Positions 33,845 through 64,000 of a stretch of DNA of 64,000 nt are shown piece after piece (position 1 is the stretch's first letter; the number at the start of each line of letters is the position of its first letter). The notes beneath the pieces are model-generated. The model had not been told where the DNA came from and did no database searches. It worked only from the letters and a program-made list of their open reading frames with translations. This DNA is from Amoebophrya sp. A120 (Eukaryota > Protista > Dinoflagellata). The translations under genes were made by a program, and so were the position numbers. Location: positions 2,643,373 to 2,707,372 of the forward strand of contig CAJINV010000009.1 of NCBI GenBank assembly GCA_905178155.1. The letters run 5' to 3'.

Positions 33845-34735
33845 CTTGTTTTGCTACTTTGCAGCCCTGTTATTTTTCTTGGTCGCCTTGATGTGCCTAC
33901 GGGTATGGCAGGCAGGAGTGGCTTCCAGTTGATAATAAGAAAATGTACGAGGAACACGACGACCTCCTTCATCCTTCCGTCATCGGAGGCGATTGTCGGC
34001 ATATTATGCTCGACGAAACTTCTGCCATGCAGCTAGAAGATCTTCACGCTATAAGCAATAAGTACATGCTGTCGCGATGAAAGTCCGGCTCCGGTGGATT
34101 ATTTATTCCATCTAGGTTGCAATAAATTCAGTCGGTTGTAGCAAGTATTTAACTCAAACCCACTCGCTGGCGAGAACGGCAAGAGAATCGCGAGAGTTCA
34201 AAATTTTGGTTGCAAGTCATTACGTTCACAAAGCTTCAAAATAGTTCCGCCGCGCTTGCGAACCTGATGCCAAACTTCAAAAATTATATAATGTGTTTAC
34301 TGACAGTGCGACGTAGTATGACGACAATTCCTCAGACGAAGCTCTAGAAATAAATAGCTACTACTGGCGCAGCCAAGATGAGGCTGTTGCGTCTTGATAG
34401 GTGTGCAAAAAGATAACTTGGTTGCGTTTTTCCTTTTTCTACTTGATTAAAGAAGTTCTACCCAATCTATAGTCATGGTGTCAAGAACATGCGTAGCAAG
34501 GCAGATGTAGGTAAAAGTAGAACAAAAGTAGTAGGTGAGTATGCTCCTTCTTATGCTCCTAGCAGAATAGGATCCTTCTGATGCTCCTTTCCAGACGGCT
34601 CGGACTCTAAGCACCATGATCGGGCTCGGAGTCACTCTGCGCTTCCTCTCAGCTTTTCAACATCTTTGAGACGAGACGTCCCCGGCAATTTTATTTATGT
34701 GCCGCACCACTCATATTTGATGTGCTCGGCCAGAC

Positions 34736-39400: not shown

Positions 39401-42400
39401 CTGTCGGATCACCAAAGCAGCCGGGGTGGGTTGGCCGTTGAGCAGAAAGTGTGGCCAAGAGGAAGATGTGGACATCTTCGACATCATGCTATCATGTACT
39501 AAAGCTTCTTCAGGTTCTTGTGTCGTCGCATCAGAAATTTTTGTCGATGTCGAAAGGGCAACATCCGCAAGAACCTCCTGCTATCCAAGAAAAAAACTGT
39601 TTAAGTGAAACTTTTTTGCAGGAACAGCATCACAGATTTGTTTTACATGACAGAAAACTTGTCATGCGTAGCTACTACGCGAAAACACGTATTAAAATAA
39701 CCTCTGATGCATATCCGGCATGACAAGTGTAACTGTATTGCAACATCTGCAAGACAAAGTTACACTTACACAGTTTTTAACTTTTTTTCTTGCATACCTG
39801 CTCTGCCAAATTTGTGCAGAAGTTCTTCTCGAATGCGACTCCGACTGCCCCCTGTCCTGTTCAGAAGTATCGCACTCGTGTTGCAATCATGCATCATAAG
39901 TCTTTTTCTTAAGGTAAATCAGCATTACAAATTTTCTTTCTCATGCTGAGGAAATGGAAATTTGTAATGCATTTTTACGAGTACGATACTTTTGCAATTC
40001 ATACTCCCCTTCCGCCACCAAGTGAGGATGCTGCGTTATTATTTCCATCGTACTCCACGGCGATCCTTTCCACCACGCGATCATCGTTCTCCACCGCACC
40101 CTGCCAAATCGCCAACACATCGCGCTGCTTTTTGTGGTTGAACCTCTCGTAATACGTGAAAAACTCGTGCTTCATGATCACGGTGCTTTCCTCTTCTATG
40201 GAAGTGTCAGAATCGAAATTGACAAAATCGAAAAATTTGCGATGCACAAAATCGATACCAGTTGATGCCTCAGCTTTCAAGTGGCGCATGACAAATTTCG
40301 GGAGCACCAAAATCCAGTTTGCCATGCTGTTTGGGCAAAGAGGACTGCTCCTGTCATGCTACTCTGGCAGCACATTGCATACCCCTAAACAGGCTTACAA
40401 TCGGTCTCATTTGCCTGCTCCCCAATACAGGCCGCCAGTGCCCTACATTTTACGCATCACAAATTTTTCGATTTTGTCGATTTCGATCCTGACATCACAC
40501 CCATATCTTCCTCAATCAGCAGATACCTATCAAATGTAAAAATGTCTGGGTCTGGAAGATTGCCAGGTTTGTCATGCACATTTTGCATGACTCCTGATGT
40601 CTGTGATGCATGCCCTAGCATCACAGATTTTGTGAGGGCTTCCTGATGCGTATACCGCATGACAAATGCTCTTTCCGTGTAGCAAAACTTGGGCTCTCGT
40701 CTTTGCTGCTCACGCAATACAGATTTTTTTAGAATCCAAAATCACCATGACAAGTTGGATTCTTCCAGACCCAGACATTTTTACACTTGATAATACCCGT
40801 GCCGGTGCAAAAAGGTTAAAATCTGCCAGATCTGGGGTTTGTCCGGAAGTTTTTTCTCCAGCAGGTGCGGACACAGCTCGAGTTTGATCTTGGGAATTTT
40901 GCCCGTGCAGAGAACGTTTTTGGGTATTGATGTCTGCGCGGCCGTTCTTTCATCGGAAGTAGAAATTGTAGTAGAAGATGACATCATCCCTTGCAGCACA
41001 TCGAACTCGCTTCCCTCTGCGTCGATCTTAATCAACCCAATGGGAATCGATTTTGTCACTTGCTCCGCCATTTCCAGTAAATCTGCGAGGGCGAACTGAG
41101 GCACGAATCGGCTTTTGTCGTAACTCAGAGGTTGAAAATTGCTTGTGTCTGGCACTGGCTGGACAACTTCTTGGGGCTGGCCTGCAGGATCATTACTTGT
41201 CGAACTCGAAGCACCACCGCCGACGGTACTTCTATCAGAAGATTCGGAAAAGAAAACCACAGAGCCCGTTTTCGGCTCCACCCCGGTCGACAAGAGGTTC
41301 ACGTTGAAAGGAGGTGGGGTTTTTTCTCTTTGTGATGCGTCGCCGCGCATGACGGTCGTTCTTTCTATTGCTGATCCCGATGACATCAAACCAGTGCTGC
41401 TTACCACTCTAGTGTTCCCGCGGTTTCCGATCCGGCCGGTGTCCATGGTGACGAAGTTCCCACTGCTCTTCCCCAGTGCGACATTAAAGAGCAATACCCT
41501 GTTGTCCATTTTCGGATTTAACGCCACAGACGCCTTAATCAGCTCGAAGGACTCGAGTAAAGGCTCAAAGGACAACACAAGGTACCCCAGCGACGCCATA
41601 AGCAACGTACAGTAGCCAACGTTCGCACCAACGTCGAGAAACATTTTCGGCGATTGACGCTCCCGGTCGTGGTTGTGTTCTTCATTTTCTTGGGATGTTC
41701 TTCCACCATGTTGCGCAAGAACGAGTTCTGGTAGGTGCTTGCAGTCCTGGGTGAATCCCGAAGTCTTCAACTGCTGCTCCGGAACTTCAAATCTCTGATG
41801 TAAGCACATGTAGAAGAAGTTGTCTTTTTCCAGCGTTTCGCCCTTAGAGTTAGCTATCCCGGCGTAGTTATCGGTTCGTAAAAAACGAAGCTGTGGCCCA
41901 GTCCTCCCCCCGGCCTCATATCAGTCACGATAGGTGGAAAATGAAGAACTTGATGCTAATAGCTGCAACACAACAACAACGGAACAAGACAGGGCTGTTG
42001 CGCGTGACATCAAGTCTGGAGTCGCACCAAAATGGCCATCTTGGTTAGCCCACTGCAGCGGAGTGACATACACATAATATCGACTCCCCATCAACATCAT
42101 CCTGTTCCTGCCTCGGATAGCATAAACAAATTTCAATACACCAAGAGACACCGGAGCCGATTGAGCTGCGCATGAAAGACATCCAGTGCTGGAGCATGCA
42201 AGTCCGCATTGCAAGTCTGGGGGGGGGGGGGGGGTGCGGACGACCACGACCACGTCTATACAGCTTCTCAGCATACTAATTCCCATATCCGTTGAAGACC
42301 TTGACGGCAAACGCGTTTTTTGGACACCTCGGGTCTTCCAAATTGTGGTAGAACATCTGCACCGGCGCGACCACGTTCCGCCCAATATCAATCGCCTGCC

Positions 42401-43794: not shown

Positions 43795-46733
43795 TATTTT
43801 GGTTTGTCGCAATTATCGTTTCAACATGAGCTTCACACATGAAGGAGCACAGCACCCACTCTGAATGAAAAAGAAAAATCTTTTTATCGGGGTTCTTCAT
43901 CGTTCACACACAGCCGAATACCATGCTAAATTTATGGGAGCCAATGCCAAGCTCAATACTTAAAAAAATTCAAGGCAAATCAATGCGGCAAGCTTTGCAG
44001 AACCAGAAGCGAAAAGTTGAAGTGTAGTAACTGTAACGGTAACCGCATCTAGTAAGAAGTTTTAGTTTATAGATACGTAGATCCTCCATCTGCTTGATGA
44101 TCTTCCCCTTCTCTTGTTCTGGAGAAAAAAAAATGATGCTGGTCGTCCGTGTTGATCTGGGTTCCGATGCGGATCATATTACGCAAAAGCCGCTGAAAAA
44201 ATCTCAAACGATTACCTCCACTATAAACGAAACACAAAAGCTCACGCAAGAGATAGAAAAAGCGGTCATGTGCGGACTGCAAGAAGCCAAGCCCTCCTTG
44301 TTAGAAGGTACATCGCCCCGAGACAACTACAAGAAAAGATCACGACCGACATACGCATAGTATCCAGATGCAACTAATGAAGCGCAAGCTACGTGAAAAA
44401 GAAAGCAGGTCCACGAACGCCGCCTGTTTGCAGTAAGTTGCAACAGGACACACGCACAAAAAAAGCGAAAGCAATATAGGGAGATGAGAAGACGCACTCG
44501 CTCACTCTCATGCGAGAGGTGCAGAAGGCACGCCATCCCCGAGCCCACCGCGGGTGGGTGGACAAACGTGGCTGATTTCTCATTTTATTAATAATGAGCG
44601 ACAACGCGCCGTGAAAATGGCACATCGGTCCTTGTTGCGCAGGAGAGCGAGGACAACGACAGACGGCTGGCACGGGGGCGCCTGGCACACAGGGGTGCTT
44701 GCGTTTGTTGCCGGCCGCCGGGCTGTACGAATGGGCCTGATTAAAAGGCCGACGAGTGGGGCGCCGAAAGTCTGCAACCAAAAGCCAGGAAGGTCAGGCA
44801 ACCTTGCGCGCCAGCCTGCCTCCCTCCGCGGCGCCCCGAACTTGCAAGCAAGCGACCCGAAGCAAGGAAGAAACCCGAGACCGGGGCGACCTGCGCCCCA
44901 TGCGCGTGCCTGCTTACGAGGCTGCCAAGCAGTGAAGGGCGGGCAAAGGCTGCCCACCCACACAGACACCACCCAAAAAGGGCAACGGCGCGCCCCCTTC
45001 CCCAAGGAGTGGAACCCAACGCGGCCGCCCCCTGGATCGGCGGGCGGCGCCGCCTGCGTTTCACGCTGGCGCGCGCCACCCAGCGGCGGGCGGGCCTGCC
45101 AGCCTACGGCCAGACTGGCGCCGGGCTCTGCTACGGACAACCAACCCAAGGCGCCGCGGGCGGGCGCGGGCAGGGAGCAACCGGGGCGCGCTCCTGCCTT
45201 GCGGAGTCTGTGCGAACAGAACAGGACGAGGCGCCGCCTGCGCTTTCCTTATTCTGCAAGCAGGCCGCCGAGCTTGCTCGAGCTCCTCCCTGGCCTCCTC
45301 CTTCGCCACAAGGCCGGGGCGAGGCGGCGCAAACTGCCCGGCGGGAAGCTTGGCGTGCGGGGCAATGGCGCCGCGCATCCGGCCGGAGGCGGGGGAAACT
45401 CCCGAACGGTGGGCCCTGGTAAGTGCCGCGCCCTGGCCGGCCGCTTTGGCGCCCTGCCTTCTTGCCAATCATGCAGGCCGGGATCTTTTTCCCCCCCCCG
45501 TCCCCGTCGCGATACCCGCTGCGGGCGGCGCCGGGCTACTTCTGCGGCCACGCAGCATTCTGGGCGGCGCCAGCGGACGGGCAGAGTGAGGGCGCCCCAC
45601 CCGGCCGGGCAGCCCGCGGGGGCTCCCAAATCAGAACGCCGGCGCGCCTCTTTCCCAGGCACCACCAGAACGCGGCCGAAACGAGACACCTGCGCACCAC
45701 TGGCGTCCTGGAGTGCTCCGCAGCCTTGAGCCGCTGCGCCGCAGCGCGCTCAAAGTGTTCGACAGCTGCACCAAGCGCAGCCCGCTCCGCCCGCGGGCTT
45801 CGTAGAGGGATCGAACTCCGCTCCCGTCTCGGCTTGTCCGAACGTCCGCGCGCACCGGTCGAATAGCTCGGCCATCACCCCGGACGTGAGGCGCCCCCGC
45901 GTCAGCTTTCCGGAGGACATGGCGCGCACAATTACCGGGCGCCGCCGAGTGCATGGCCTAAATGCGGACCCGTCTGGTGGCTGGAGTCTCAGGCGGGGGG
46001 TCCGTCTCGTTGTGCTTCTTTGCTGAGGACCAAAGTCTCACCGGTGAGTCGTAGCCCACTCATCTAATGTGAAGTTGAAGAAGAACACAAATGTAATTAT
46101 ATCAAGCAGTAACGACAGGGACCTAACCCAACATGCTTCGTTGCGCTTCCTATACTGCTTCACAATCGTTTTTGCTTCTCGTATGATTCTTCATCAACTG
46201 CCAGTCCAGTACTTAGAGCCAAAATTTCCCGTGTCTAAGAATCGAAGAGAGAGTTGTAGCTTGCGTTTCTTTTGCAGAAATCTTAAAGATCATACTCATA
46301 GGCCTTAAGGCTTTTCATCACTTATCACTTTTTCTTTTTGCACTTGATCGCTGTGTAACATGTACTTTTTTATCTTCGCAAAAACGACATCGACATCGCT
46401 AGTACTAAGCTTGTTTACGCAAAGCACCAGGGTAACTTTGGATCCACGTGTTCGACGATAAACGACGCCAGCGTGTCTATCTGGCACTAAACCGCGGTCT
46501 ACTTGCACTTATTTGCTGCGTACTTCGCTAAAAAAAAGAGAGATCAGTGTGCATGAAATTTTGTTTTGAAAAAAAACCGGGCTACTCGTCACTAGCTGCA
46601 TTTCAAACCTAGCTGCTAAACCAAAGACTGTTGTTACTGTTTATAGACACAACAAGCACAAGCTACTTCGTCGCAAAAGCTCACACTTAAGGATGATGCC
46701 AGTACCGGTTTCACTAAACCGAAAACCACCTCC

Positions 46734-49700
46734 TCAATCCTGATGCCGTTTCAACGGCACCGCATCTACTTCCCCAGCAGCAGAGACAGCCGCTTCGCCT
46801 CCTCCACCAGTTTCCCTTTCTCCACTGCCCCGCTGCTGTTGCTCTCTACTCGACGACGTCGCAGACGGTCCATTGGTAGAGCGAGGCTGCGCTCCTGCTG
46901 CGCCAGCAGCTGTATTTTGCGCAGTCGCTGTTCCTGTTGTAGTGGTTGTTGTACTTGTTCCACCAGCAAGCGGCTGAGCAACGGGATTTGCACTGCTCCT
47001 TTCCTCTCCACCAACATCGTTCCTTCCCGCACTACTTCTCAAGCAGTCCTGAAACATGATCTTCGGCAACACCTTCTGCTTAAAAAACGCGATCAGATTC
47101 TCCCGACTGGTCGTGTTCAAATCTTTAGTATTTCCATGCTTCTCTTTGTCTTTCTCCCCAGCATGTTGATCACTGTTGCCGGTTTTGTTCCCTCTCTGAT
47201 TACTATTTTGTTGAAAGAACGCGGCAGCCCCGGGGAAGTTTTTGAAATTTTGCATTCCGAAGTTCTGCACCCGGTCGAGCATGAGTTTTTTGTACTTGTT
47301 CAGTTTCGTATCCTGGAAAAAACAGCCATCCCCATTCAGTTTTTGCATGACAAATTAATAGTGGATTTTATGCATGTTTTGCATGACAAATTGGATGGGG
47401 ATGGGTGTTTTTTCCTGGATATTTCGACGTCGCTTTCTTGTCTTTTTTGTTCAAGTCATCATTCCTCCCACCGTTCATCGCGTTTTCCAACTGCTGGTCT
47501 TGCTGTTGAACGAACGTGCGGTTGAGTATCCACGAAAAACAAAAAAACACCCATAGGCATTCCCATCGATTTTCTGCATGGCAGACACGAGCACTAGTGC
47601 ACGTTTTGCATGACAAATTGAATGGGGCGGATCATGGGTCTTTTTCTGTGGGTATTGAGCCACAAATTCTCCAAACACGTTTGCTGCACTTCGGGAAGAA
47701 ACTGACCCAACACCGTGAATAGGGGGAGGACCACCACGTCGATGAACCCGAGCTGGCATTTCGGTGTGGAAGTGGACTCCCGATCGAAAAACATCGACAC
47801 CGGAAGATTCTTGTCTCGTTCGATGTCTCCCTGTCGGAAATATTCTTCCATCGTCCGGCTCACGTGAGTGAAATACAACTCCGATTTTCTCGTTGAGTTG
47901 CTGATGTCCGCCGCGTGAAGCAAAATGTTCAACAAAACCTGTTTATCCTCCGCCGACCGCGGGTCCGGAAAGGTTTCCCTCGCGGAAGCCAACTTCGTCT
48001 TAAAACTGCTCAGCTCCGCTATCCTGAGTAAAAACGTCCCCACGCCAGAGTTGTCATGCAGATTTTTTTTTTTTTGATTGGGCCCCGCTCTGTTGACGCA
48101 TATAAATTCATCACTAAAACTAGGAGGCCGGTGTGCGTTACTTAACATGTGAAGCAGTTCTACGAATTCACCTGCCTGCCGCAGCAGGTGCAGGTCAAAC
48201 AGGGCCGACACCTTTCACACAGTTAAGCAGTGCGCGCGTATGCGTGCATTTTTCATCTTGTTTTGATATTCTTACTATCTGCTCTTGTCCTCTGCTCCAG
48301 CACATTGTACTGCGCGTCTTGTTCTCGCCTCGCTTCCGTTTTCCCCCTCCTCTCCCGCGTGCGTGTCCACCGGGGCCTAGTCCCCCCCGTCCTGTAGCTC
48401 GAGCGGCTCGCCGATGTCCCTCGATTGCATCCGCGCGGGGCTCGGGCTCGTGGCTGTTTTCCGTCATATCTCCTTATCATGACTCCCCACTTTGCCGCGC
48501 TGACTCCGCGCCCGCTTTCGTTTTTCATGATGTTTTCTTCTAAGCTTCGTGTCTGTTAGCGTGGGTTAGTCTGTAGAGTAAAAGTAAAGTAAAGCGATGC
48601 GGAAATCTTCAAGAGGTTACGCCTGATTTAAACTCGCGCTAGCATCTTGTTCCTATTTCTAATCCCCGTCTTTTCCCCACAACCCACGACCAGCCTCTGC
48701 TGGAAAAAAAGAAGTTCCCTGGTGTGTTTTTTAATAGTCGCAGCGGGTGGGGGGAGACCGCATTGGTCTCCCCCCGCACGCTGCTAGTCTGTTGTAGTAT
48801 CTGCTTTGTATTTCTACATGAGCTAGTGCTGTTGTGACGCATCATTTGAATTGCTTTACGAAGTGCTCTGAAAAAACGAAGTGCTCTGAAAAAACGAAGT
48901 GCTCTGAAAAAAACGAAGTGCTCTGAAAAAAAACGAAGTGCTCATTGTTTTACTCAACAGCATAACAATGGATTATGAATCTGAAATTTTTCGCACGAAG
49001 AAGCGGAAGCCGTCACCAGAAGCGCAGCTAATAAGTAACGACAGGAACATTTGTAATGCGCATCGCGAGGAGAGGCCTTTTTAGTCGTGTTTTGGAATTT
49101 GTAATGCTGTTTTAAACAGGATGAGCAGATGGATTCCTGATGCAGCTGGCCTTGCGAACCTGCACTACACTACGAGTTGCAACTTGTGATGCGTGACCCC
49201 CAAAAGTTCTAGGCTTGTGTTGCAAAATCCCCATCTTGACTCTGGTGTGGGGATGCTTTTACTCAGGATATCCGCGAAGTGCGCGCTGGTATCGGTCGCT
49301 AACACCATCTGGATCACGATCTTCCGGGCCTCGGCGTATTGTTTCTCATTCAGTGTCGCGAAGATGTCGTACTCCGGGGAATTTTCCAACATGAGGTAGA
49401 AGGCCGCAGCAACGTGGTGGTTCTCCAGAATCGCGGAATCGTTGTAGCGTAACGCGATCGGGTGTTTCGTCCTGACCAGAAACGCGTTGGACACGCCTGG
49501 ATGTTGGTAATCGTGAATTGCCGCCGCGAACAAGCCGGCTAAAACCTCATGCGGGGACAAAATTGGGTCGATCGAGCTGTTTTGGTTCTGCAGCATCAAG
49601 TTTTTGTCGGTTCCCTGCCCGCCGCCGCCAACGTTAGTCGCGTTCGTGGCCATTTTTGACACAAAGCTGTTTTCCCTCAAGTCCGACATGAAACTTGAAC

Positions 49701-52700
49701 TGCCGTGCAACCCCCCGCCGCCGTAGTGGCCGTAACTGGCGTTATTCGCGTTCATACCGCCCAAAACCCAGAGCAGCATGCAGTGGAAACCTTGCAAGAC
49801 GTCGCACGCGTGTAAAGCGTTGTGGTACGGGTTTTCCGCCACGTGACCACCGGAAATCGCCTTCATCAACAGAAAACAGGGATCCAACGTCATCTCCAAG
49901 TGCGCGCAAAGCTCGTGGAAAATCACCAGTTCACAGAAAACTAACGGGAGGCAATCTAAATGCGGGTTGGCGAAGGGGATGCGGTTTGATGTGATGAGGT
50001 TTTGGTGGTGTTGCTGATGATTATGTCGTGGTCCTGTTGCTGCAACGCCGGGTTTTGATGCTCCTGATGCTGCACCTCCATGATCGCTGCTGCCGCTACT
50101 CGTCTATGAACTGCAAAACTATCGCACTGACGCGTGTAAATGCATTACAAATTTCATCCTCAGCATGAGAAAGAAAATTTGTAATGCGCATTGACCTTAG
50201 CAAAAGGATTTGCAAGGCATGAGCATGATTGCAAGACGAGTACGATACTCTGGCACAGGATATCACCCCAGCGAAGGCGAAAACGTCAAAAGAGTCCCAG
50301 TTGTGTAAGTCGTGCTCCAAAATCCGTAGGATTTTCTGGTAGATCTTCGTCTTCTGGTACAGGATGTAGTCTTCCTTTTGCAGAAACCCCATGTCCTGCC
50401 AGATATGATTTTCCGCTTCTGCGGCGGTATCAGCGTCCTCGTATTGGTTGTTGTTCCTCCCACTTCCATAGTACTGACCGGCACCAGAACCTGCTCCGCC
50501 TCCACCCACTCCCAAAAACCCGCTGCAGTCGATCTCAACCTCGGTTTCCAATATCTCGATCAGCCTTTTCCTCGCCTGCTCTAAATTTTCTGCGTGCTCC
50601 TTCTTTTTACTCTGCCCGATGAGAAATTTTTCCAATTCCGAATCAATCGCGCCGAAGGAGCTGCTGTTAAATTGGTTGTCTTATGGATTGCAAATATGTC
50701 TGGGTCTGGAAAGTTGGAACTTGTCATGCAGATTTTCCATCATCATCATCATGTAGTGGACACCCACTCCCAGCGCCACAGGTCAAGGATCCCCTCCCCG
50801 GGGGGTGGGCGATGAGGTCCGGAATGCGGGACTTAGCATGACAGACTCTGCGAGGGCTCTGACATGCCTATCCTGAATGACAAACTCCCTTCCAACTTGG
50901 TCAAAAGTGGACAGCTTTTGGCACTCATGCAACACAGATTTTTGCATGCTTGAGATTTACCATGACAAGTTGCCACCTTCCAGACAGACATATTTGCAAT
51001 TGATATATCTTCCGCGGACACGATTTTTACCCACTCGGAAATCTCCTGCTCTAACAATAGATTTTGGTTGTTCGCACTCGCGTTGTTTTTCTGGCCGGAA
51101 TTGTAGTCATTCCCGTCGACGGAAATGCTGTACAGCTTATTCGATCCAACCACATCCATCGACCACGTGATCTCCTCCTTCAAACTGTTCGGAATTACCT
51201 TCATCGCCCGAACTTCCCGAAAAATCTCCAAAACCCGCTCGACTGGGGAGGAGAAGGAAATGGAATTAGAGTTCTTGTCCAACTGATTCCGCCCCGTTTT
51301 TCGCGTGTTGCGGTTTGCCGACGCAGTGAGTTTCCGTAACCCGTTGACCAACCGCAGCAACCGCAACAATCGCAACAGAGCCAACGTCGTGCTACTGGTC
51401 GCCTCTTCGGGGTTCGCGTACCGCTGTAGCGCGAAAACCCAGGAGATAAAAACGATCGTGAAGTCGAACAGATTCCAAAGGTCCGCGAAGTAGCTGAAAA
51501 TGGAGTTTGTCGCCGTGTGAGCGAGAAGTCGGATCACAATTTCTAGCGCGAATAAGCCGAGAAACACCGTGTCGGTGTCTTCAAACGCCATTTTTTGACT
51601 GTTGCTCAGGTAATCCTCCACCGCGATTAATGTCAGTAGGAAAATCGCATACAGGCCCAAAATGCTGTAAACGATCAAATCGAACAATTTCCACTCGACA
51701 CAGCGAATGCAGAGCTTCTGGATGATTTGCAGCGGCCCCGGGTCTTCTGGCTCCTGGTCTGGTCCATTTGGGTTGTAGTCGTATCAAATGTAAAAATGTC
51801 TGGGTCTGGAAGATTGTCAGACTTGTCATGCATATTTTGCATGGCCCCGGATGGCTGTAATGCATGGCCTAGCATCACATATTTCTAGAAGGCTTCCTGA
51901 TGCCTATTCTGCATGAGAAATGCCCTCTCTGTGTAGACCAAACTGGACTCCTCTTGCTGGTCATGCAATACAGATTTTTTTCGAATCCGAAGACAGCATG
52001 ACAAGTTGCAATCTTCCAGACCCAGACATTTTTACAATCCATAAGTCAGGGGATGATGCTATGCCAGCAGCTCCGTACTGCAACTGGTACATCTCATTTG
52101 CCATCAACTGTAAAAATGTCTGGGTCTGGAAGACTCATGGTGCTTTTGCATGACACAGAAGATCTGGCATGGAAGCGCTAGCATCACAGGTTTGGAGAAG
52201 CTTCCGCAATGGCAAATCCGCATGACAAGTGCCCCATTTTGGTGACAGAAAGGGGGCAGCTTTTGCTGCTTGTGCATGAGAGATTTTTATGTGTTGTAAA
52301 ATGCGCATCACAAGGTGCATTTCTCCAGACCCAGACATATTTGCATTCCATATTTGCATCCAACTCCGTCATGCCGGCCATCATTGCGAATTGTAGGTTG
52401 TTGGTCTGAAAATACCGCCTCTCCTCTTCCGCCGTGAAAACCGGGACTTGCCCGAACCGACGAATCAAGCAGTACCAAATGAGGGTTTGCGCGATGAGAT
52501 TTCGGATTTGGTCAAAGATGACTAAGACGAACCAGTATGAACTGCAAATATGTCTGGGTCTGGAAATCAGTGATGCTGAATTGAGCATGATTGAAGCGCT
52601 TGCAACGGCTGCCAGGCATGACAAGTTTTGGAGACGCCTGCTGATGCCTACCACGCATGACAAACTGCGTTTTTGTATGACAAAGCAAGCTCCGCTTTTG

Positions 52701-55700
52701 CTGCTCATGCAGCACAGATTTTCCAGGAATGCAAGACACGCATCACAAGTTCCACTGTTTCAGACCCAGCCCACATTTTTGCATTTGATAACCAGGAAAG
52801 GAAAACCATCTCGACGCGGCCGAACGCGTATGACCTGCAAAAATGTTCGGGTCTGGAAACTTGTGATGCTAGTTTGTGAATGGTGGGCGCACTGCGTTAC
52901 CACGCAGCCACGCATGACAAGTTTCTGAGCGTCTAATTCTATGTGTTTCGCTTCCATCCCGCATGAAAAACTGCGTTTTTGCATGACAGGTAAGAGGCTG
53001 CTTTCCTGCTCACGCATTACAGATTCAAGAGTCGTGTCAGACAAGCATGACAAACTTGCAGTCTTCCAGACCCAGACATATTTGCAGTTGATAACGCGGC
53101 GACTTTGACCAACACGGCGGAAAGGTACAGCAGGATCTGGATGGTTTGGGAGAGTGGAATTTAGTTATTTTTGTGGTGCACCATCAATTGCAATAAAGCA
53201 CAGACTCATGTAACGAAAATTTTTGTGATGCAAGAAGAACGATGAACATGCTATGTTACCCCGACAGTCAGGATCGACACCACCCACTGCAGCCCGCATT
53301 TCAAACACGCCTGCTCCAGATAGCTCAACGACTGGTGCTTCTCTGCCTTCATCAAAAATGCCTGCGTCGTCGTCGCAGAGACAACGGCATTTTGAAGATT
53401 CGCAGAAGCTGGCGCAGCTTGATTCACCCCGCCCGGAGGTCCTGCTCCGGTTAGTTGGTTTGGCGAGTTGCTAGAAGTTCCAGGTGCGCCAACGTTGTTT
53501 ATTCCGCCCCCACCACCCGCGACAGGCCCTGCAATCGCGTTGCCGCCATTACTCGCGGAGCCACCTCCACCTGCGCCATCGCCGGTCCCAGCAGGAACAG
53601 CTCCTGCACCGCCCGGACCACTCCCTTGGGCGCCGGCCGAGGCGATTAAGTGTAAAGACCGATCGTCTAGAATTGTCGTCCAGAAGATATGACCTGCTCA
53701 AACGTTACAATCTCAAACGTTACAATAGAATCCGAGATTTGTCTTGCATGATCAACATGACAGACTCGGACAGCATTCCACTTTCTGCAATACAAATTTC
53801 GCCAGATTGTAGTGCGGATTGGGACTCCAGAACTTGTCATGCGTAATCCTGTGGGAGTAGGGTAGATCATGCACTTCTTGCAACACAAGTCCCAGATTCT
53901 ATTGTAACGCTTGAGATTGTAGCACCTGGGCAGGTCATAGAAGATCAGCACGTTGTAGAGAAACAGGATCTATGAAATGCAAAAATGTCTGGGTCTGGAA
54001 GGATGCAACTTGTGGTGCTACCTCTGGATTCTACATAAAATCTGTATTGCGCGAGCAGCAAAAGAAGTGCAATTTGTGCTACGCGGAGAGGGTATTTCTC
54101 ATGCGGTATGAGCATCGGAAAGCCCTCGCAGAGTCTCTGATGCCAGGGCATGCATCACAGACCTCATGGGTCATCGTCATGCAAAATCTGCATGACAAAC
54201 TCCTGCATTCTTCCAGACCCAGACATATTTGCATTTGATAGGATCGGTAGCGCGATCGACATCGCCAGGATGATGTGCTGCACCGTGAAACACCAGGTGT
54301 TATCGCTATCGAAGCAGATTTCGTTCTTGTAAACAATTTTCTCGCACTCATCGCTGTCGTCGACGCAAACCAAGTGGTTTGGGTTGTAAATCGAAATTTC
54401 CGTCCCCGTGGAGTCCAGTATGCAATACAAATTTCCCGCTCAACGTCCACATGTACAAAAGGCATGAGATTTTGATTTTTCGCTAACTGGGATTGTCATT
54501 AAACTTGTCATGCTGGTGACTAAGATTGAAGGCACGTTTTGTCCTGCAGCTGCAGAAACAGCAACAGCATCTGTACGCGTCCGGGAATAGATATACTGTG
54601 AATATCCAACGTGACAGCGCAACTTGGTCTGCTGTCCCCCGTCAACGTGTAGTACTGGACTTGTTCGTTTTCCAGGTCCGTGACGGCGGACACCACCGCC
54701 TGCACTCCACTTGGTAATTCCGAAAATTCCGTCTCGTGGGGGAAAAACGTTTTCAGTGATGCGTTGAACGTATGGGAGTGCCAGGATCGAAATCGTCAAA
54801 GTTGAAATAACTTGTAATGCATAAAATCGATACCAGTTGGAAGCCCAAATTGTAAGCGGTGCATGACAAATCTCGGCACCGTCTAAATCCAGTTTGTCGT
54901 GCTGTTTGGGGACAGCAGGCGTCTTTTGTCATGCTTCCTTAGCAGCTCTATCCCAAACCCGAAACAGGCTCACAATCGGCCTCGCTTGCAATCCCTGCAA
55001 GACCGTCTTTTCATGCCTTGCATTTTATGCATCACAGATTATTTCAACTTTGTCGACTTCAATCCTGACACTCCCATAGAACGGCCCCTGTTGGTAATTC
55101 ACGAACACGGTGTTCTGCTCCAACGCAGCTTTCGAATACTGCTTTCCGAACAGTGACTCCCCGGGTATCCAGGAAAAAAACTGTGTAAGTGCATAGTTTC
55201 TTGGAGGACTAGCATCACAAGTTTGCTCTGCATGACACAGAAAACCTGTCATGCGTAGCTGGTACGTGAAAACACGCGCGAAAATTGCCTCTGATGCATG
55301 TCCAGCATGAAAATGTAGCAGTTTTGCATTTTATGCAACACAAAGTTACAGCACTTACACAGTTTTTTTCTTGGTGGATACCGGGATAGGAAGGAACAGT
55401 CGCTCGGCAGTTCGGGAAACAGACTTGCGTCCTCGGTAGCCTTCCCTGGTAGCTTTGCAACGAGTTGGTGTTTCGTGTTTCCGGGAGGCTGCTGGTCAAA
55501 AACCGGTCCTCGTCCACGAGCGACGTTTTCTCATTCGGGAACGCGACGTAGCGGCACTCATTGAAAGCCTTGGAAGATTCGAGTTCCGCATCGGCTGCGA
55601 TGGCGGAGGTGGTTGTCACGGATTTCGCTTCGTGCCGTCTCCCGAGGTGGAAGTCGTAGAGTTTGGAATACTCGTTATCGCCGTAGTAGATCGAAAAACC

Positions 55701-56275
55701 GGTTTTCAGGAAGCAGGAGAGCGTGGGGTATCCAGGAAAAAATATCCATCCCAATACACTTTGTCATGCAAAACATGCATAACATCCACTATTTGCCATG
55801 CAAAAAAATGGATGGGATGGGTGTTTTTTCCTGGATATGGGAAAGTTTTCCAACACACAGCTGATTTTGCAGTCCAGGCGTCGCTATCCTGTGCAAAAGT
55901 ATCGCACTCGTACTAATTGCAATCTTGCATGACAAACCTACCTTTTTACCACCTGAATTAGCATTACAAATTCAATTTTTCTTTCTGATAAAATTTGCAA
56001 TGCAATTTATACTAGTACGATACTTTTCCAATGCATAGTCGCATGCACAGCTTCCCATTTTCCCAATTCGCATAGTCGACCACGTGGGAGGTGATGATTA
56101 GGTAGATGGAAAGCGCGAGAAACAGGCGTATCAAACGAAGCAACGCGCCGGAGCGACACCGGGGCGGGAGATAGTTTTCGCGGAACCAGTAGCGGAGAAA
56201 AAGGTTGTTGGCTTTCAGGTGCGTCAAATAGGTTTTTGCAACCGGCTCAGCGTTCAAGAAGTCGGAGGCCCACAT
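46734..56275 (-). CDS. Multi-pass membrane protein: Cys-rich loop, voltage-sensor-like (S1-S4) domain and class I 3',5'-cyclic nucleotide phosphodiesterase; 16 introners plus canonical intron 53137-53259
   Basis: PDE motifs NPYHNALHACDV, IHDYQHPGVSN, LENHH, LATD, LHAADISN, EYFRQGD, QLGFI; VSD motifs FALEIVIR, WNLFDF, LLRLLRLLRL. Confidence 0.85.
47309..47421. mobile_element. Introner family D
   Basis: TIR; DR TTTCG. Confidence 0.9.
47527..47654. mobile_element. Introner family D (diverged)
   Basis: TIR; DR TTGAG. Confidence 0.82.
48020..49270. mobile_element. Introner family F with ~1-kb nested insert (about 48062-49037)
   Basis: TIR halves; DR TCCGC; interrupts the PDE catalytic domain. 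Confidence 0.88.
48858..48944. repeat. Tandem repeat ACGAAGTGCTCTGAAAAA(A), 4-5 copies
   Basis: Direct reading. Confidence 0.85.
50105..50262. mobile_element. Introner family B
   Basis: TIR; DR TCGTC/TCACC (degenerate). Confidence 0.8.
50682..51005. mobile_element. Introner family A with nested ~70-bp truncated retroposon (50738-50812)
   Basis: TIR; DR TGTCT/TATCT. Confidence 0.85.
51782..52043. mobile_element. Introner family A
   Basis: TIR; DR AGTCG/AGTCA. Confidence 0.88.
52102..52352. mobile_element. Introner family A (left end CAT)
   Basis: TIR; DR TTTGC. Confidence 0.88.
52536..52790. mobile_element. Introner family A
   Basis: TIR; DR ACCAG. Confidence 0.9.
52829..53093. mobile_element. 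Introner family A
   Basis: TIR; DR ACGCG. Confidence 0.9.
53688..53939. mobile_element. Introner family L (single copy here)
   Basis: TATGACCTGC..TACAATCTCAAACGTTACAATAGAATC TIR; DR GAAGA. Confidence 0.88.
53971..54240. mobile_element. Introner family A
   Basis: TIR; DR GGATC. Confidence 0.9.
54419..54604. mobile_element. Introner family K
   Basis: TIR (degenerate); DR TCCAG/TCCAA. Confidence 0.8.
54771..55078. mobile_element. Introner family G
   Basis: TIR; DR GAACG. Confidence 0.9.
55166..55380. mobile_element. Introner family E
   Basis: TIR; DR CCGGG. Confidence 0.9.
55729..55837. mobile_element. Introner family D
   Basis: TIR; DR TGGGG/TGGGA. Confidence 0.88.
55885..56037. mobile_element. 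Introner family B
   Basis: TIR; DR GTCGC. Confidence 0.9.
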
Positions 56276-58239
56276 AATTGATGTTTTTGAATTTTTTGGT
56301 ACGGTCGACTACCAAGAGTTTCTTTCTTCAACTACTCATGTGGTGCTCTCTCGTTATTTTAGAGGAAGTGGCACGACCACACCGACTGCGTATACCACTC
56401 GTTCCGCCTGGGTGAAATGATCCTCCGTCAACTACGTGCTTTATAATTCACTTCAAAAAGCTCCCCTGCTCTAGCACGAGCCGGAACCGCCTCAAGAACC
56501 TCGATCCCCCTCATCTTCAAGTGCGAACATGAGCGACTCGCACCATGCGTCCTCGTCAGCTTGTTGACGAAGGAAGAAAAGCGCGCGGACTACTTGCAGC
56601 TTCGCCGCCACCCCCCACCTCCGCGGTCGCTCGCGCGGCGCTCCACAAAAGCCATGGGCTGCGTGTGAGCGAGCATTGATTTCGCGCCACAGCAGGTGGG
56701 GCGAGCGGTGCGTGTAAAGCCGGGCAAACGAAAACACAACCCCAATCATTCAGCGACAATGCGTGACACGCGGTAGGCGTGTAGCTACAATAACGAAACA
56801 GCAGCCACACACCGCTGCATCAATAAGCTTAAGCTTAACGCGAGGAGAAGCACGGCGCGGGCGCACTATTTAGGGCGCGCGCGCCTTCTTTTTAGTACCT
56901 GCTGCGGAAAGCACATAGAACCCCCCCGCGGCGCCACAGGCAGCCGCCGGGAGTTGCCGGCGCCGGGGCTCGACACGGCCGAACGAACTGCCCCAAGAGC
57001 TCCCGCGGAGAGCTTGCCCACACCGTGGACACAACACAACAGGCGCGGCGCGCCAAAACCAAGAAAGCAAGGGAGTGCGCCGCCAACAGACACACCGGGG
57101 CGAAAGGTGATAGGGCGGGCCCGGGCGCCGCCCCCCTCCCGCGAAGAGGGGGCCGCGTCCGCCCGACCTGCGCGGAGGGTTGGCGGGCGCCACGAAGGCG
57201 GGGCCGCCCGGGGGCAGGAAGCGAACAGCGCGGCCGCCCCCCCGGGCCCGCCCGCCTCCACGGCGCGGCCCGCGCAACAAAGAGCAGGGGGCGCAACCGG
57301 GAGGGGACGCCGTCCCCGGCGGCGGCGCGCTTGCGGCGCTCCGCGGGGTAGACTGCGCCGCCCGGGGCCCGTTTGGTCGATGGCGCGCAGCTGCCAGCCT
57401 GGCGGCCTTCTTCGCCGTTCCCATACCCATCCCCGCCACGCTTGAAGGCTGCCCAAATAAAAAACGGCCGGGCCGACCCGCCTCGCAGGCCCCCTGCTTT
57501 GTTCGCATAAGCCTGCGCGAGTGGTCGCGCTCGCAATGCCGGCCGGGCGCCAGTGCCTGGCCGGGTAGCGAACGCGCTAAGCCCGCCCGCCTGCCCGATG
57601 GGCGCAACAAGCAACCGCCCCCCGCTGGCCCGAAAGCTGTCGCCCGAGTGCCCGCAACTGAAAGCGCCAGGCCGCCGCCCTTTTCGTGCATCGCGGCAAA
57701 ATTCGCGCGGGCATTTCGAGGCGGGTCGCTGGGGTATCCCTCCACTGCGAGCCTACCGCCCTGCATCTGGGCCCATTCCTGTGCCCGCGCCTGTGGCTGC
57801 TGGCGAAGGCGGCGCACCAAGGTCGTCGGGCGACGCGGCGCCCCCGCGATGCGCGCGCGATCCCTCACAAGTAGCCCCGGCCCCAGCCCGCGTCTGTCCA
57901 GTCTCTTCCGCTAATGCTGTGCATCAGTCTGGCGAAGTTGTGCAGCGCTTTTTGTTTGTTCCTGGGTGCTGATCTCCCGGAGGAGCAGCAGCTTGACGGC
58001 ACTGTGGCCGCGCGAACACATCATAATCTTCACACGCGCTGCTTTGTATATTGACAGAGCCAAGGCTAGCAAAAAAACATGTGTCCGCAATCGTCTTGAA
58101 TCTTCAAATTCGAACGACAGGAAACACGGATGCTATCGTCCTTCGGCTTTAATATCGGAGCTCAGAGTGAAGATAAAAAAATTCGAAACAAACAAGCGGT
58201 TGCTATCGCTAACATCCTCCCCATTTTCAATTTATATCT

Positions 58240-61300: not shown

Positions 61301-64000
61301 CTAATTCGAAGGTTCGATCTCCAAAACCGGGTGGTAATACTTCTTGACGAACAAGTCCATAAACGTCACCAACTCCCGGAACAACGAACCAAACGAATCC
61401 AACTCGTTGTCAAAATCTACCCAATGCTGTTCGTTTTTTGTCACCTTCTCCACCCCGGGAATGCCCTTCAGCTTCACGAGGCAGGATATGGAAGCGTCAG
61501 GATTGAAATTGACAAAGTTGAAATAGTTTGTGATGCATAAAATGCAACCCACAAAGTGGCTGTCTTGCAGAATAGGCAAGGGAGGCAGATTCGAAGCCTG
61601 TTGAGGGGTAGAAATAGGGCTGCTAAAGTAGCATGACAAAAGGCGTCTTCCTTACCCAAACAGCATGACAAACTGGATTTCGGTTCTACCCAAATTTGTC
61701 ATGCGCCACTTGGAAACTGGGCCACGCCTGGCATCCATTTTATGCATGGCAAATCATTTCAACTTTGTCGATTTCAAACCTGACGCTTCCATACAGGAGT
61801 TTTTCATCAGAGGCACCCATCCGGTTAATATCCTGAGTAAAAACGTACCCACACCAGAGTCAAGATGGAAAATCTGCTAGACAAATCGGCCAACTTTGCT
61901 TGTTTCGCATGACAAATTTGGACGCGTAGTGTAGTGCTGTTTGAGCTAGTTCAGCAGCATTACAGATCTAGTCTCTCATGCTGATTGGAGCATGACAAAT
62001 TTCAAAACACCCTTAGAAAATGCTTCTCATGGGGCTCCGCATGACAAACATTTTAAGCATGCAGATTTGCATGACAACTATGGTGTGGGTACGTTTTTAC
62101 TCAGGATAGTTAACTTCACGTAGTTCTCCCGGTACCGGTCTCCGTCAGAATCGAAGTGTTTTTTACTGATCCCAAGGCGCTCAAAGTGCTCCAGTGTTTT
62201 CTCATCCTTGGCCTTCCGGGCGATTTTCGCGAGGTCATCCACGGAAAGACCGTTGATTGTAGTATTTCCCCCGCCTTTAGGATTAGGTGGAAACGACCCG
62301 GTCAAAGACGCAACTGCGGCCTTCTCCGCCGCGGCATTCTTCGCGTCAATCATTTTGGAAAAAGTCTCGAAGGAAGCGCCTGTTTCGCTGAACAGTTGGG
62401 ACTGCGGAATCGTGAATTGGCTCTTGACGATGGTGTGGTAGAGGTCTTTGTCGTTGATTTTTTCTGCGGTGGACAACGCGGCCAACGCGTTGTTGTAGTC
62501 GTTGACTAAAACTTCGTACTCCGGTTGGAACTGCGCCTTCACCCTCGCAAGGTCGTTATAATTTTCTGCGTTCATATCATGGTCGTCGTCGTCAAAATCG
62601 TCCTCTTCATCCTCTACTATCTCCACTTTATCAAACGCCTTCGAGTCCACCAGACTCAGCAATTCCATCGCTTTTAACAGCAAAAGCCCGGACCGGAGTT
62701 TGAAGTTCTTCATCAACCACTCCTTTTGCAGCTCCTGTTCGCTCGGGCTAGCGGTTGTTTTTCGGGTGTTGCGACCACGGCGGCGGGGGTCTTCAAGGAG
62801 ATCCTCCCCTCCGGTTGCCGTTGCGTTCGTTCCGACCACGAAGTATCAAATGCAAAAATGTCTGGGTGTGGAAGAGTGTAGACTTGTCATGCAGATCTTT
62901 CATGACCCATGAGGTCTGGAATGCAGAGCCTAGCATTACAGACTCTGTGAGGTCTCTGTCATGCCCCCAATCCACCATGAGGAACTCCCTCCCAACTTGA
63001 TCGAAAGTGGACAGCTTTTGGCACTCATGCAACACAGATTTTTGCATGATCATTCGGATTTAGCATGACAAGTTGCAATCTTCCAGACCCAGACATTTTT
63101 GCAATCCATACGAAGCACGGATCAACGACTTTCAATGGTTGTGTGCAGTCGTACAGCGTCTTGTTGTCCTTTAGCAATTCATACACTTCCTGTTGTTTCG
63201 TGACGCAATAGTTTAGGACAAAATGTGCCTTGTCTAAAGCGTCGTGGAACAAGTAGACGTTTTTGTAGAGAATCGTGTATTCCCTCGCTTTCTTCTCAGC
63301 TAAACTCGCTCCCACCGGGTTCTTTATGCTGTGCAAAAGTATCGCACTCGTATAATGAATGCATTACAAATTTCCTCAGCATGAGAAATGAAATTTGTAA
63401 TGCGGATGTATATTTGTAATGCATGACTGCAATACGAGTATGAAGGTCGCGCCCGGAGGGCGATATTGGTAACCAAATGCGTGCGCGAAAATCTAACCAG
63501 CGCGAAAGCCTAACCAGCCGCGCGGCGAAAACGCGGCCCTGCGGGCCGCGCTTTGGGGCTATTTGTTTTTGATTACAGTCCCACTACTTCTTCTTCAAGC
63601 CCCCTGCGTGAGAAACTGGCCCCCTGGCCAGGAAGGTATCTGGGTCATCGAGGGCTTCCGGATTCGCATTCAAAGCTTATCGGGGCCGCGGGGAAGTGGT
63701 GGAGCCCGCGGCGGCCCGCAGGCTCCTGCGATAAGCATCGCAGGCGAAATCCGGTCTGCTATTTCGCAGCGGGGCATCCTTTCTAGCCCCCTGCATGACA
63801 AACTGGCCCCCTGGCCAGGAAGGTATGTGCGAAACCACAAACCCGCGGACCCTGCTGGGCCACCAAAGTCGGGCATTTCAGACGCGGCGGAGGTCCCGAA
63901 TTGGTGCCCACAACCCAGAGCAAACGTGGATTTTGGGACATGCCTCCGCCCGCTTCTAATGCATTTTTTTTTCCCCAATCGCGATGGTATGGCGCAAGCG
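61301..64000 (-). CDS. Hypothetical protein, 3' part (5' end beyond window); at least 4 introners
   Basis: Exons 63111-63324, 62109-62843, 61794-61828 and 61301-61486 lie between elements; no family recognised. Confidence 0.6.
61487..61793. mobile_element. Introner family G
   Basis: TIR; DR CAGGA. Confidence 0.9.
61829..62108. mobile_element. Introner family F
   Basis: TIR; DR GTTAA. Confidence 0.9.
62844..63110. mobile_element. Introner family A
   Basis: TIR; DR CGAAG. Confidence 0.9.
63325..64000. mobile_element. Introner family B interrupted at 63439 by a nested TAT-starting GC-rich element (runs off window)
   Basis: Left TIR at 63325; right TIR broken after TACGAG by TATGAAGGTCGC. Confidence 0.7.

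Follow-up and report, generated by a model that had tools for sequence, protein, structure and literature searches.

A pore-less voltage-sensor domain joined to a class I phosphodiesterase in Amoebophrya sp. A120, a candidate voltage-regulated enzyme of an old alveolate family

Introduction

Voltage-sensing phosphatases (VSPs) set the precedent for coupling a voltage sensor to an enzyme, as described in the accessible part of a 2024 review of voltage-sensor-regulated proteins (PMC13095418); that part treats channels, transporters and phosphatases and leaves phosphodiesterases (PDEs) unmentioned. A further precedent comes from the alveolates, in which AC-alpha represents a fusion of an ion channel with adenylyl cyclase (accessible part of PMC5746546). 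Here, we describe a gene of the dinoflagellate Amoebophrya sp. A120, which encodes a voltage-sensor domain followed by a class I PDE. The gene is located in a stretch of 64,000 nucleotides (nt) of contig CAJINV010000009.1 (assembly GCA_905178155.1, positions 2,643,373 to 2,707,372 of the forward strand), subsequently designated the window, to which all coordinates refer.

The closest described proteins are TgPDE4 (TGGT1_229405) and TgPDE16 (TGGT1_258508) of Toxoplasma, which constitute 'clade B' of the PDEs (PMC10865986) and were reported to contain portions of pfam00520 (accessible part of PMC8809380). According to one review of the PDEs, the clade is limited to coccidians among the apicomplexans sampled and expression is restricted to cat stages (PMC10865986), while the accessible part of a preprint lists both genes among those of the bradyzoite transition (10.1101/2025.09.10.674405). 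The word 'voltage' does not occur in the three main texts covering this domain of TgPDE4/16, and no description of a voltage-sensing PDE was found in the literature searched, outside which most subscription journals fall. A first-pass annotation, made from the letters of the window alone, had regarded the fusion as easily missed. Such fusions have been noticed before: TgPDE4 and TgPDE16 are already on record with a partial PF00520 domain, and the A120 gene belongs to an old, published, uncharacterised alveolate PDE family. New are the reading of the membrane domain as a pore-less sensor, the enzyme/pseudoenzyme pair reported below and a tentative resemblance in fold between the upstream module and polycystin-1.

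Results

A pore-less S1-S4 module precedes a class I PDE

The predicted protein comprises, in this order, a membrane module of four helices bearing a Cys-rich ectodomain, a pore-less S1-S4 module, a helical linker and a class I PDE. The features are as follows (aa, amino acid residues; TM, transmembrane helix).

46734..56275, minus strand: whole coding span, 18 exons, 1612 aa (splice model, transcript contigs, public models)
56078..56149, minus strand: TM1 of the upstream module, aa 43-66, preceded by an N-terminal segment that is conserved and of predicted cytosolic location (hydropathy, fold of homolog P0050)
54284..56077, minus strand: Cys-rich domain, predicted to be extracellular, aa 67-332, exons 1-6
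53677..54283, minus strand: TM2, aa 333-357, spread over three exons (hydropathy)
53353..53646, minus strand: Gly/Ala-rich insertion, aa 368-465, site of the split in the public annotation
52460..53292, minus strand: TM3 (aa 486-509) and TM4 (aa 514-545) of the upstream module
51322..51690, minus strand: voltage-sensor domain S1-S4, aa 628-750 (PF00520, PDB matches, census)
51013..51258, minus strand: post-S4 helical hairpin (aa 772-816) and short Trp helix (aa 840-853), candidate coupling or inhibitory linker
47515..50335, minus strand: class I PDE catalytic domain, aa ~970-1392 (Pfam PF00233, PDE4D alignment)
46737..47514, minus strand: low-complexity C-terminal tail, aa 1393-1612; last exon without Pfam match

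The sensor exon matches the Pfam Ion_trans profile (PF00520) with E 3.4e-15 at profile positions 3-116 of 241, i.e. over S1-S4 only, and contains the motifs FALEIVIR and WNLFDF and the S4 stretch quoted in the first-pass annotation. Sensors of Cav2 and Nav channels are its top sequence matches in the PDB. The constriction site of a sensor is defined by acids in S2 and S3, an aromatic residue in S2 and arginines in S4 (accessible part of PMC13095418). All of them are present in the A120 protein, which carries Y641 in S1, D667, F674, E677 and R681 in S2, D703 in S3 and the periodic series R734, R737, R740, N743, R746 and K747 in S4. In a census comprising our model and 31 long family members, one per cluster and with fragments left out (n = 32), the S2 Asp, S2 Phe, S2 Glu, S3 Asp and the first S4 arginine (R1) are invariant. 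R2 is Arg or Lys in 32 of 32 rows, R3 is Arg in 30 and position 5 is Arg in 28. Because the gating machinery is conserved across the family, a working sensor is likely, and S4 very probably carries gating charge.

A pore domain is absent, in agreement with the first-pass annotation. By hydropathy, four helices precede S1, and the interval from S4 to the PDE contains none, with a maximum over 19 residues of 0.99 in the A120 protein. Likewise, no hydrophobic segment that could represent S5-S6 was found between S4 and the PDE in any of the 32 rows (maximum 1.29), and the PF00520 matches stop at or before profile position 127 of 241 in every member matched. A search for a pore motif in the family returned a single chance match among the 32 rows, positioned at the start of S4. 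A six-helix voltage-gated channel was accordingly rejected, as S5, pore loop and S6 do not follow S4.

Hv1 proton channels are recognised by the S4 motif RxWRxxR and an acidic residue in S1 (accessible part of PMC10377628). This class was rejected as well: the motif is absent and S4 is devoid of Trp in 32 of 32 rows, and the mid-S1 Asp/Glu selectivity residue is replaced by Tyr (30 rows) or Met (2 rows). In the A120 protein this position is Y641, which aligns with the S1 Asn of Cav channels, presumably the equivalent of Hv1 D112.

The catalytic domain was identified by matches of PDEase_I (PF00233) to two exons following the sensor (E 1.8e-37 and 1.8e-29), so that both profiles that the first-pass annotation had proposed for a HMMER check were recovered. 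The corresponding public protein P0001 scores 245.8 bits vs a Pfam cut-off of 24.8, and PF00520 and PF00233 are its only Pfam matches at E up to 10. Alignment to PDE4D found 13 of 13 positions intact, comprising metal ligands, catalytic His and pocket, as anticipated for the metal-binding motifs; they include H1086, H1090, H1189, D1190, D1306, N1309, Q1357 and F1360. PDE4 enzymes are the closest solved catalytic domains, and the PDE4-like Asn/Tyr/Gln pocket suggests that the A120 enzyme probably prefers cyclic AMP (cAMP).

The sensor had been proposed to stand directly before the PDE. The order holds, but ~220 residues separate S4 from the PDE and include a conserved helical linker, whose hairpin begins ~22 residues past S4. 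Four linker residues (W, K, Y, W) are invariant in 17 of 17 members. The PDE1 N-terminal family PF08499 matched the linker in 1 of 17 members at E 0.13, as one among 18 families at chance level, and the PDB matches of the linker include no PDE. The short Trp helix resembles a segment of PDE4D, by eye only.

Gene structure and transcript evidence

The reading frame extends on the minus strand from an ATG at 56275 to a stop ending at 46734, exactly the span given in the first-pass annotation, and comprises 4839 nt (1612 aa) with one terminal stop. It was obtained by uniformly excising every element together with one copy of its direct repeat. Retention of any single intron leads to an early stop, and when, as a control, the junctions were displaced at random by at most 2 nt, the frame stayed open in 0 of 20000 trials. 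The introns are listed below; joints refer to the transcript contigs.

55880..56037, minus strand: introner 1, 158 nt, implied by piece spacing in X1 record 3
55724..55837, minus strand: introner 2, 114 nt, implied by X1 record 3
55161..55380, minus strand: introner 3, 220 nt, consistent with public model P0051
54766..55078, minus strand: introner 4, 313 nt, repeat search and splice model
54414..54604, minus strand: introner 5, 191 nt, weak inverted repeat (9/20), joint in X1 and X2
53966..54240, minus strand: introner 6, 275 nt, repeat search and splice model
53683..53939, minus strand: introner 7, 257 nt, repeat search and splice model
53137..53259, minus strand: canonical GT-AG intron, 123 nt, joint in X1 and X2
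52824..53093, minus strand: introner 8, 270 nt, contig joint
52531..52790, minus strand: introner 9, 260 nt, contig joint
52097..52352, minus strand: introner 10, 256 nt, contig joint
51777..52043, minus strand: introner 11, 267 nt, contig joint
50677..51005, minus strand: introner 12, 329 nt, separating the sensor exon from the PDE exons, joint in X1 and X2
50100..50262, minus strand: introner 13, 163 nt, joint in X1 and X2
48015..49270, minus strand: introner 14, 1256 nt, splitting the PDE domain, joint in X1 only
47522..47654, minus strand: introner 15, 133 nt, contig joint
47304..47421, minus strand: introner 16, 118 nt, contig joint

Repeat searches confirmed the predicted 16 introners: all 16 elements are bounded by terminal inverted repeats, with ends of the TA...TA type, and flanked by direct repeats of 5 nt, the latter exact in 11 cases, with one mismatch in four and with two in one. 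Each also has similar sequence elsewhere in the window, so that the elements show the inverted repeats, the 3-5-nt direct repeats and the repetition in the genome by which introners are recognised. The 17th intron, at 53259-53137, had not been mentioned before; it is of the canonical GT-AG type and lacks any copy in the window. Introners of Amoebophrya have been defined, and their occurrence in strain A120 reported (accessible part of PMC7789003); an introner-laden gene structure is thus already described for this strain. Introner 14, the longest, is a member of a family of 280-290 nt (further copies near 5921-6208 and 61829-62109) carrying an insert of ~970 nt. It is still removed despite the insert, since a contig joint of X1 skips it. 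Within the insert there are tandem repeats of short length and, near 48740-48784, a hairpin, and no open reading frame exceeds 139 codons.

Transcript data were Logan contigs of two runs, X1 and X2, which derive from one sample and whose RNA status is the guess of the tool. These contigs skip 11 of the 17 predicted introns at exactly the predicted lengths, including the 1256-nt intron (X1 only); the count refers to the joints listed, beyond which there are 9 further joint rows. A spliced contig of 2199 nt (X1 record 2) joins three exons, namely those of sensor and linker and the first of the PDE. In X1 record 3, the pieces of exons 1 and 3 are separated by 42 nt, the length of exon 2. For the six 5' junctions, support comes from the spacing of contig pieces and from public model P0051. 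Among the contigs listed none spans the entire gene, and none of the joints listed bridges the Gly-rich exon.

In the public annotation the locus is cut into two adjacent models, the split being located upstream of the sensor at the Gly/Ala-rich insertion. Residues 1-407 are identical to CAD7960327.1 (P0051, 407 aa), an exact prefix of our model, and residues 466-1612 to CAD7960326.1 (P0001, 1147 aa), an exact suffix. The 2199-nt contig and single-chain orthologs argue for a single transcript encoding sensor and PDE, as the first-pass annotation had assumed, rather than for separate ones.

The architecture is conserved in alveolates and occurs in two paralog groups

Family members were collected by three word-index searches and a full HMMER scan with a profile of the N-terminal module (N-module). 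The scan detected 224 proteins at E 0.001, with the same layout among the matches listed (best 150 of 224). Organism names were looked up for 30 matches, and every name obtained is that of an alveolate: Amoebophrya A25 and A120, Oxyrrhis, dinoflagellate MGD, Chromera, Vitrella, Besnoitia, Cystoisospora, Rhytidocystis, Colponema and one Perkinsus fragment. Hence, a survey of alveolates as suggested by the first-pass annotation finds the sensor-PDE layout conserved from dinoflagellates to coccidians. In the long matches scanned, the N-module is always followed by sensor and PDE. In none of the 24 longer matches scanned is the PDE replaced by a different enzyme domain; a BT1 match upstream in one fragment is unrelated.

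Phylogenies were calculated in a quick IQ-TREE run and in separate FastTree runs for the two halves of the protein, with 31 rows for the membrane part and 30 rows for the PDE part; they were midpoint-rooted and without bootstrap, and some branches are long. Both halves recover the same two groups, in accordance with the IQ-TREE run. Because the halves agree, we conclude that the sensor-PDE fusion is old and was inherited as a unit. Group 1 (16 rows) comprises the A120 gene and members from A25, Oxyrrhis, Chromera, Besnoitia and Rhytidocystis, with metal ligands intact in 12 of 16; the A120 gene groups with Chromera Cvel_9186 (P0010) and Besnoitia with an SH-aLRT value of 100. The core of group 2 includes Vitrella, Cystoisospora, Rhytidocystis, Oxyrrhis, dinoflagellate MGD and others, and the HD motif is lost in all 10 of its rows that have a PDE domain, so that the catalytic domain of this group is predicted to be dead. 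Two rows adjoining group 2 are intact, and two, including an A120 paralog, have no PDE part in their record. This second A120 gene (P0082, CAD7971308.1) falls into group 2; its public model is partial and ends before the PDE domain.

Oxyrrhis, Rhytidocystis and A120 each possess both groups, and therefore the fusion appears older than the duplication. Besnoitia and Cystoisospora contribute one member each, placed in different groups. In the apicomplexans sampled the metal sites are damaged in both groups (Besnoitia P0054, Rhytidocystis P0196/P0195, Cystoisospora P0102), and judged from these residues such parasites may retain the sensor without any active enzyme.

The family likely includes TgPDE4, a link that runs through Chromera Cvel_9186, the comparison itself containing no Toxoplasma sequence and the named matches of the family searches no Toxoplasma protein. 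In the leaf labels of a supplementary tree, available as text without branches, Cvel_9186 follows TgPDE4 and Neospora; the next labels are Stentor, Stylonychia and Oxytricha, and then Vitrella, Chromera and TgPDE16 (PMC10865986).

The upstream module has a modest fold match to polycystin-1

The additional TM/Cys-rich region noticed upstream of the sensor in the first-pass annotation corresponds to TM1-TM4 and the Cys-rich domain of aa 67-332. The latter contains 12 Cys, 7 of which are kept in at least 28 of 29-31 aligned rows. By contrast, the Gly/Ala-rich insertion of ~100 residues in the TM2-TM3 loop was not seen in the homologs aligned. The predicted topology, with eight helices, places the N-terminus inside, followed by TM1, the Cys-rich ectodomain, TM2, a variable inner loop, TM3-TM4, S1-S4, and the linker and PDE inside.

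A structure model of the module plus S1-S2 was obtained for homolog P0050 from a 121-sequence alignment (pLDDT 92.6, pTM 0.81), in which the Cys-rich ectodomain folds with high confidence. Searches with the N-terminal module gave no Pfam match, no sequence match in the PDB and no usable match in the Atlas, which does not prove a new fold, and Foldseek found nothing at E 0.001, polycystin-1 (PC1) appearing at E 7.0. When compared with 48,161 chains by VIA-align, the model matched PC1 first (Z 9.3, rmsd 8.2, 202 residues aligned, model 8-450 onto PC1 3244-4008), values of Z below ~13 being common for helical bundles according to the tool's own warning. Re-alignment of 75 chains again put PC1 at the top, this time with another entry (Z 9.5, rmsd 7.3, 213 aligned). 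Sequence identity is 7%, HMMER gives no support, and several sensor-only matches lie within 1 Z. PC1 has five helices ahead of a six-helix channel fold (accessible part of PMC12799467). The helix order of the A120 protein would fit a PC1 core without TOP domain and pore: the S1-S2 loop has ~12 residues and the chain begins 42 residues before TM1, leaving room for neither a TOP domain nor the PC1 ectodomain. On this modelled fold, homology of the upstream module to PC1 is about as probable as its absence.

Other features of the window

The gene is flanked by GC-rich islands at 44400-45950 (68%) and 56850-58000 (71%) vs ~49%; nothing similar to them occurs in the rest of the window, and the two reading frames tested do not match Pfam. 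Downstream of the gene, 40784-41920 (minus strand) contains an FkbM-type methyltransferase exon, and 33203-33853 (minus strand) gives a weak match to NADPH-dependent FMN reductase, just below cut-off. Exons at 13528-20195 (minus strand) match the N-terminal domain of IML1, which we take to represent a DEPDC5-like GATOR1 subunit.

Discussion

A candidate voltage-regulated phosphodiesterase

Taken together, the invariant gating residues, the lack of a pore, the absence of Hv1 hallmarks and the conserved hairpin suggest that the sensor would drive a conformational change in the cytosolic part. We therefore favour, by a modest balance of probability, the reading that the pore-less sensor switches cyclic-nucleotide breakdown by voltage through the conserved linker. 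Voltage would move S4, and this movement would be relayed via the hairpin ~22 residues further on to a helix that either covers the active site of the PDE or frees it. The analogy is PDE4, where UCR2 caps the active site. Capping or release would then alter the hydrolysis of cyclic nucleotides, probably cAMP.

Several observations weigh against this reading. S4 contains three arginines only, followed by an uncharged fourth position in all 30 ungapped rows. The ~220-residue spacer between S4 and PDE is partly of low confidence in the structure model, and the linker has no significant match to PDE4 UCR (PF18100) or the PDE1 N-terminus (PF08499). The sensor is equally kept in the 15 of 30 members whose metal sites are damaged. 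RNA support comes from one sample with guessed RNA status. None of the data sets listed as containing the sequence is catalogued as RNA, and two raw RNA runs labelled with the same species (X8/X9) do not cover the exons; neither result bears on expression. Prediction of PDE substrates from sequence has been cautioned against (PMC10865986), and TgPDE4 and TgPDE16 have so far not been assayed for activity (PMC10865986, section 17).

Since the sensor is retained even where the metal sites are damaged, it cannot in every member act on catalysis of its own chain. The conserved sensor of dead paralogs would be explained if these pair with active subunits, and we put this forward as a hypothesis. The same observation fits an alternative, in which the membrane part serves in anchoring, targeting or assembly, with its sensor fold maintained for structural reasons or for binding a partner, while the PDE is constitutive or regulated otherwise. 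The long spacer between S4 and PDE and the published finding that most Toxoplasma PDEs are membrane-anchored without a regulatory domain are in line with this explanation. However, it leaves the invariant buried acids of S2 and S3 and the S4 arginines (30-32 of 32) unexplained, as well as the conserved hairpin directly after S4, and we consider it unlikely.

The protein might also be a receptor-PDE, with the Cys-rich ectodomain receiving the main input, be it a ligand, a surface contact or a mechanical cue, and the sensor tuning or relaying it. The high-confidence fold of the 12-Cys ectodomain, the constant succession of N-module, sensor and PDE in the long matches scanned, and the receptor-like nature of polycystin-1 as best fold match would suit such a role. 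But neither a ligand nor a known binding fold emerged from the Pfam, PDB, Atlas and Foldseek searches, and the match to polycystin-1 is of modest quality (Z 9.3-9.5, rmsd 7.3-8.2, 7% identity), which makes this explanation slightly less probable still. Doubtful to a similar degree is a far-reaching variant of the voltage-switch reading, which combines these elements: a polycystin-1-like core would have lost its pore and gained a PDE, giving a voltage- and possibly ligand-gated PDE that works as an active/dead paralog pair and, in electrically excitable ciliates and flagellates, provides the off-switch to match the channel-fused adenylyl cyclase.

Improbable in our view is a pore-less accessory subunit of a channel, or an ion leak through the sensor, that would bring the PDE to a channel microdomain. 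It agrees with the published 'ion transport' reading of TgPDE4/16, with the closeness of the sensor to Cav/Nav and with a possible polycystin-1-like core; against it stand the missing S5-P-S6, the missing pore motif (1 chance match of 32), the absence of the Hv1 motif RxWRxxR in 32 of 32 rows and a Tyr instead of Asp at the S1 position in 30 of 32. Finally, an artefact arising from two adjacent genes or an incorrect splice model can practically be dismissed: the locus has two public models and no listed contig covers the entire gene, but the public split lies upstream of the sensor so that P0001 alone already contains sensor and PDE, both are joined in one spliced contig, and all parts occur in one chain in orthologs.

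If the voltage-switch reading is true, a voltage-controlled PDE would provide a new route from the electrical state of the membrane to cAMP and cyclic GMP (cGMP), on which swimming and invasion of alveolates depend, and the so far unexplained 'ion transport domain' of TgPDE4/16 would acquire a meaning that can be tested. A role specific to the flagellum may also be considered. Intact members from Amoebophrya, Chromera and Oxyrrhis suit assays better than the degenerate coccidian ones. The protein could also become a tool for setting cAMP by voltage.

Comparison with known systems

With polycystin-1 the A120 protein shares the order of helices followed by a sensor, with four helices ahead of the sensor. 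In contrast to PC1, it lacks a TOP domain, S5-S6, PLAT and the large N-terminal ectodomain, and instead has a Cys-rich domain inserted between TM1 and TM2 and a PDE downstream of the sensor.

The catalytic domain resembles human PDE4, which is its best sequence match (profile E 1.5e-100); the top Foldseek match is long-form PDE4B, and the pocket Asn, Tyr, Gln and Phe are the same as in PDE4D. The A120 PDE differs in being membrane-embedded and in a linker without significant UCR match, and in place of the pocket-adjacent Trp and Ile both Amoebophrya proteins carry His and Thr.

Like the VSPs Ci-VSP and TPTE, the A120 protein consists of a pore-less S1-S4 followed by a cytosolic enzyme, and the sensor fold matches Ci-VSP over S1-S2 (Z 7.2, rmsd 1.3, 74 residues). 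However, the effector is a PDE instead of a PTEN-like phosphatase, four extra helices and an ectodomain lie upstream, and the sensor sequence is closest to Cav/Nav. While the linker between sensor and enzyme is short in VSPs, it comprises ~220 residues here. Membership in the VSPs was rejected, as P0001 carries only PF00520 and PF00233 and neither a PTEN-like phosphatase nor a C2 domain.

Alveolate AC-alpha likewise fuses a channel-derived membrane module to an enzyme of cyclic-nucleotide metabolism, but it has six helices like voltage-gated K+ channels and makes cAMP, whereas the A120 protein has no helices after S4, carries extra ones before S1 and ends in an enzyme that degrades the messenger. 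Membership in this class was rejected too, P0001 having no cyclase domain.

TgPDE4 and TgPDE16 are most similar, as they combine a partial PF00520 and a class I PDE in one chain. TgPDE4 has, with 118 kDa, the size of the family members found here, and Cvel_9186, which belongs to the group of the A120 gene, stands two labels from TgPDE4 in the published tree. TgPDE4, like the Besnoitia member, carries many catalytic substitutions, whereas the A120 enzyme is intact, and the domain termed channel-like or 'ion transport' in print for TgPDE4/16 is read here as a voltage sensor.

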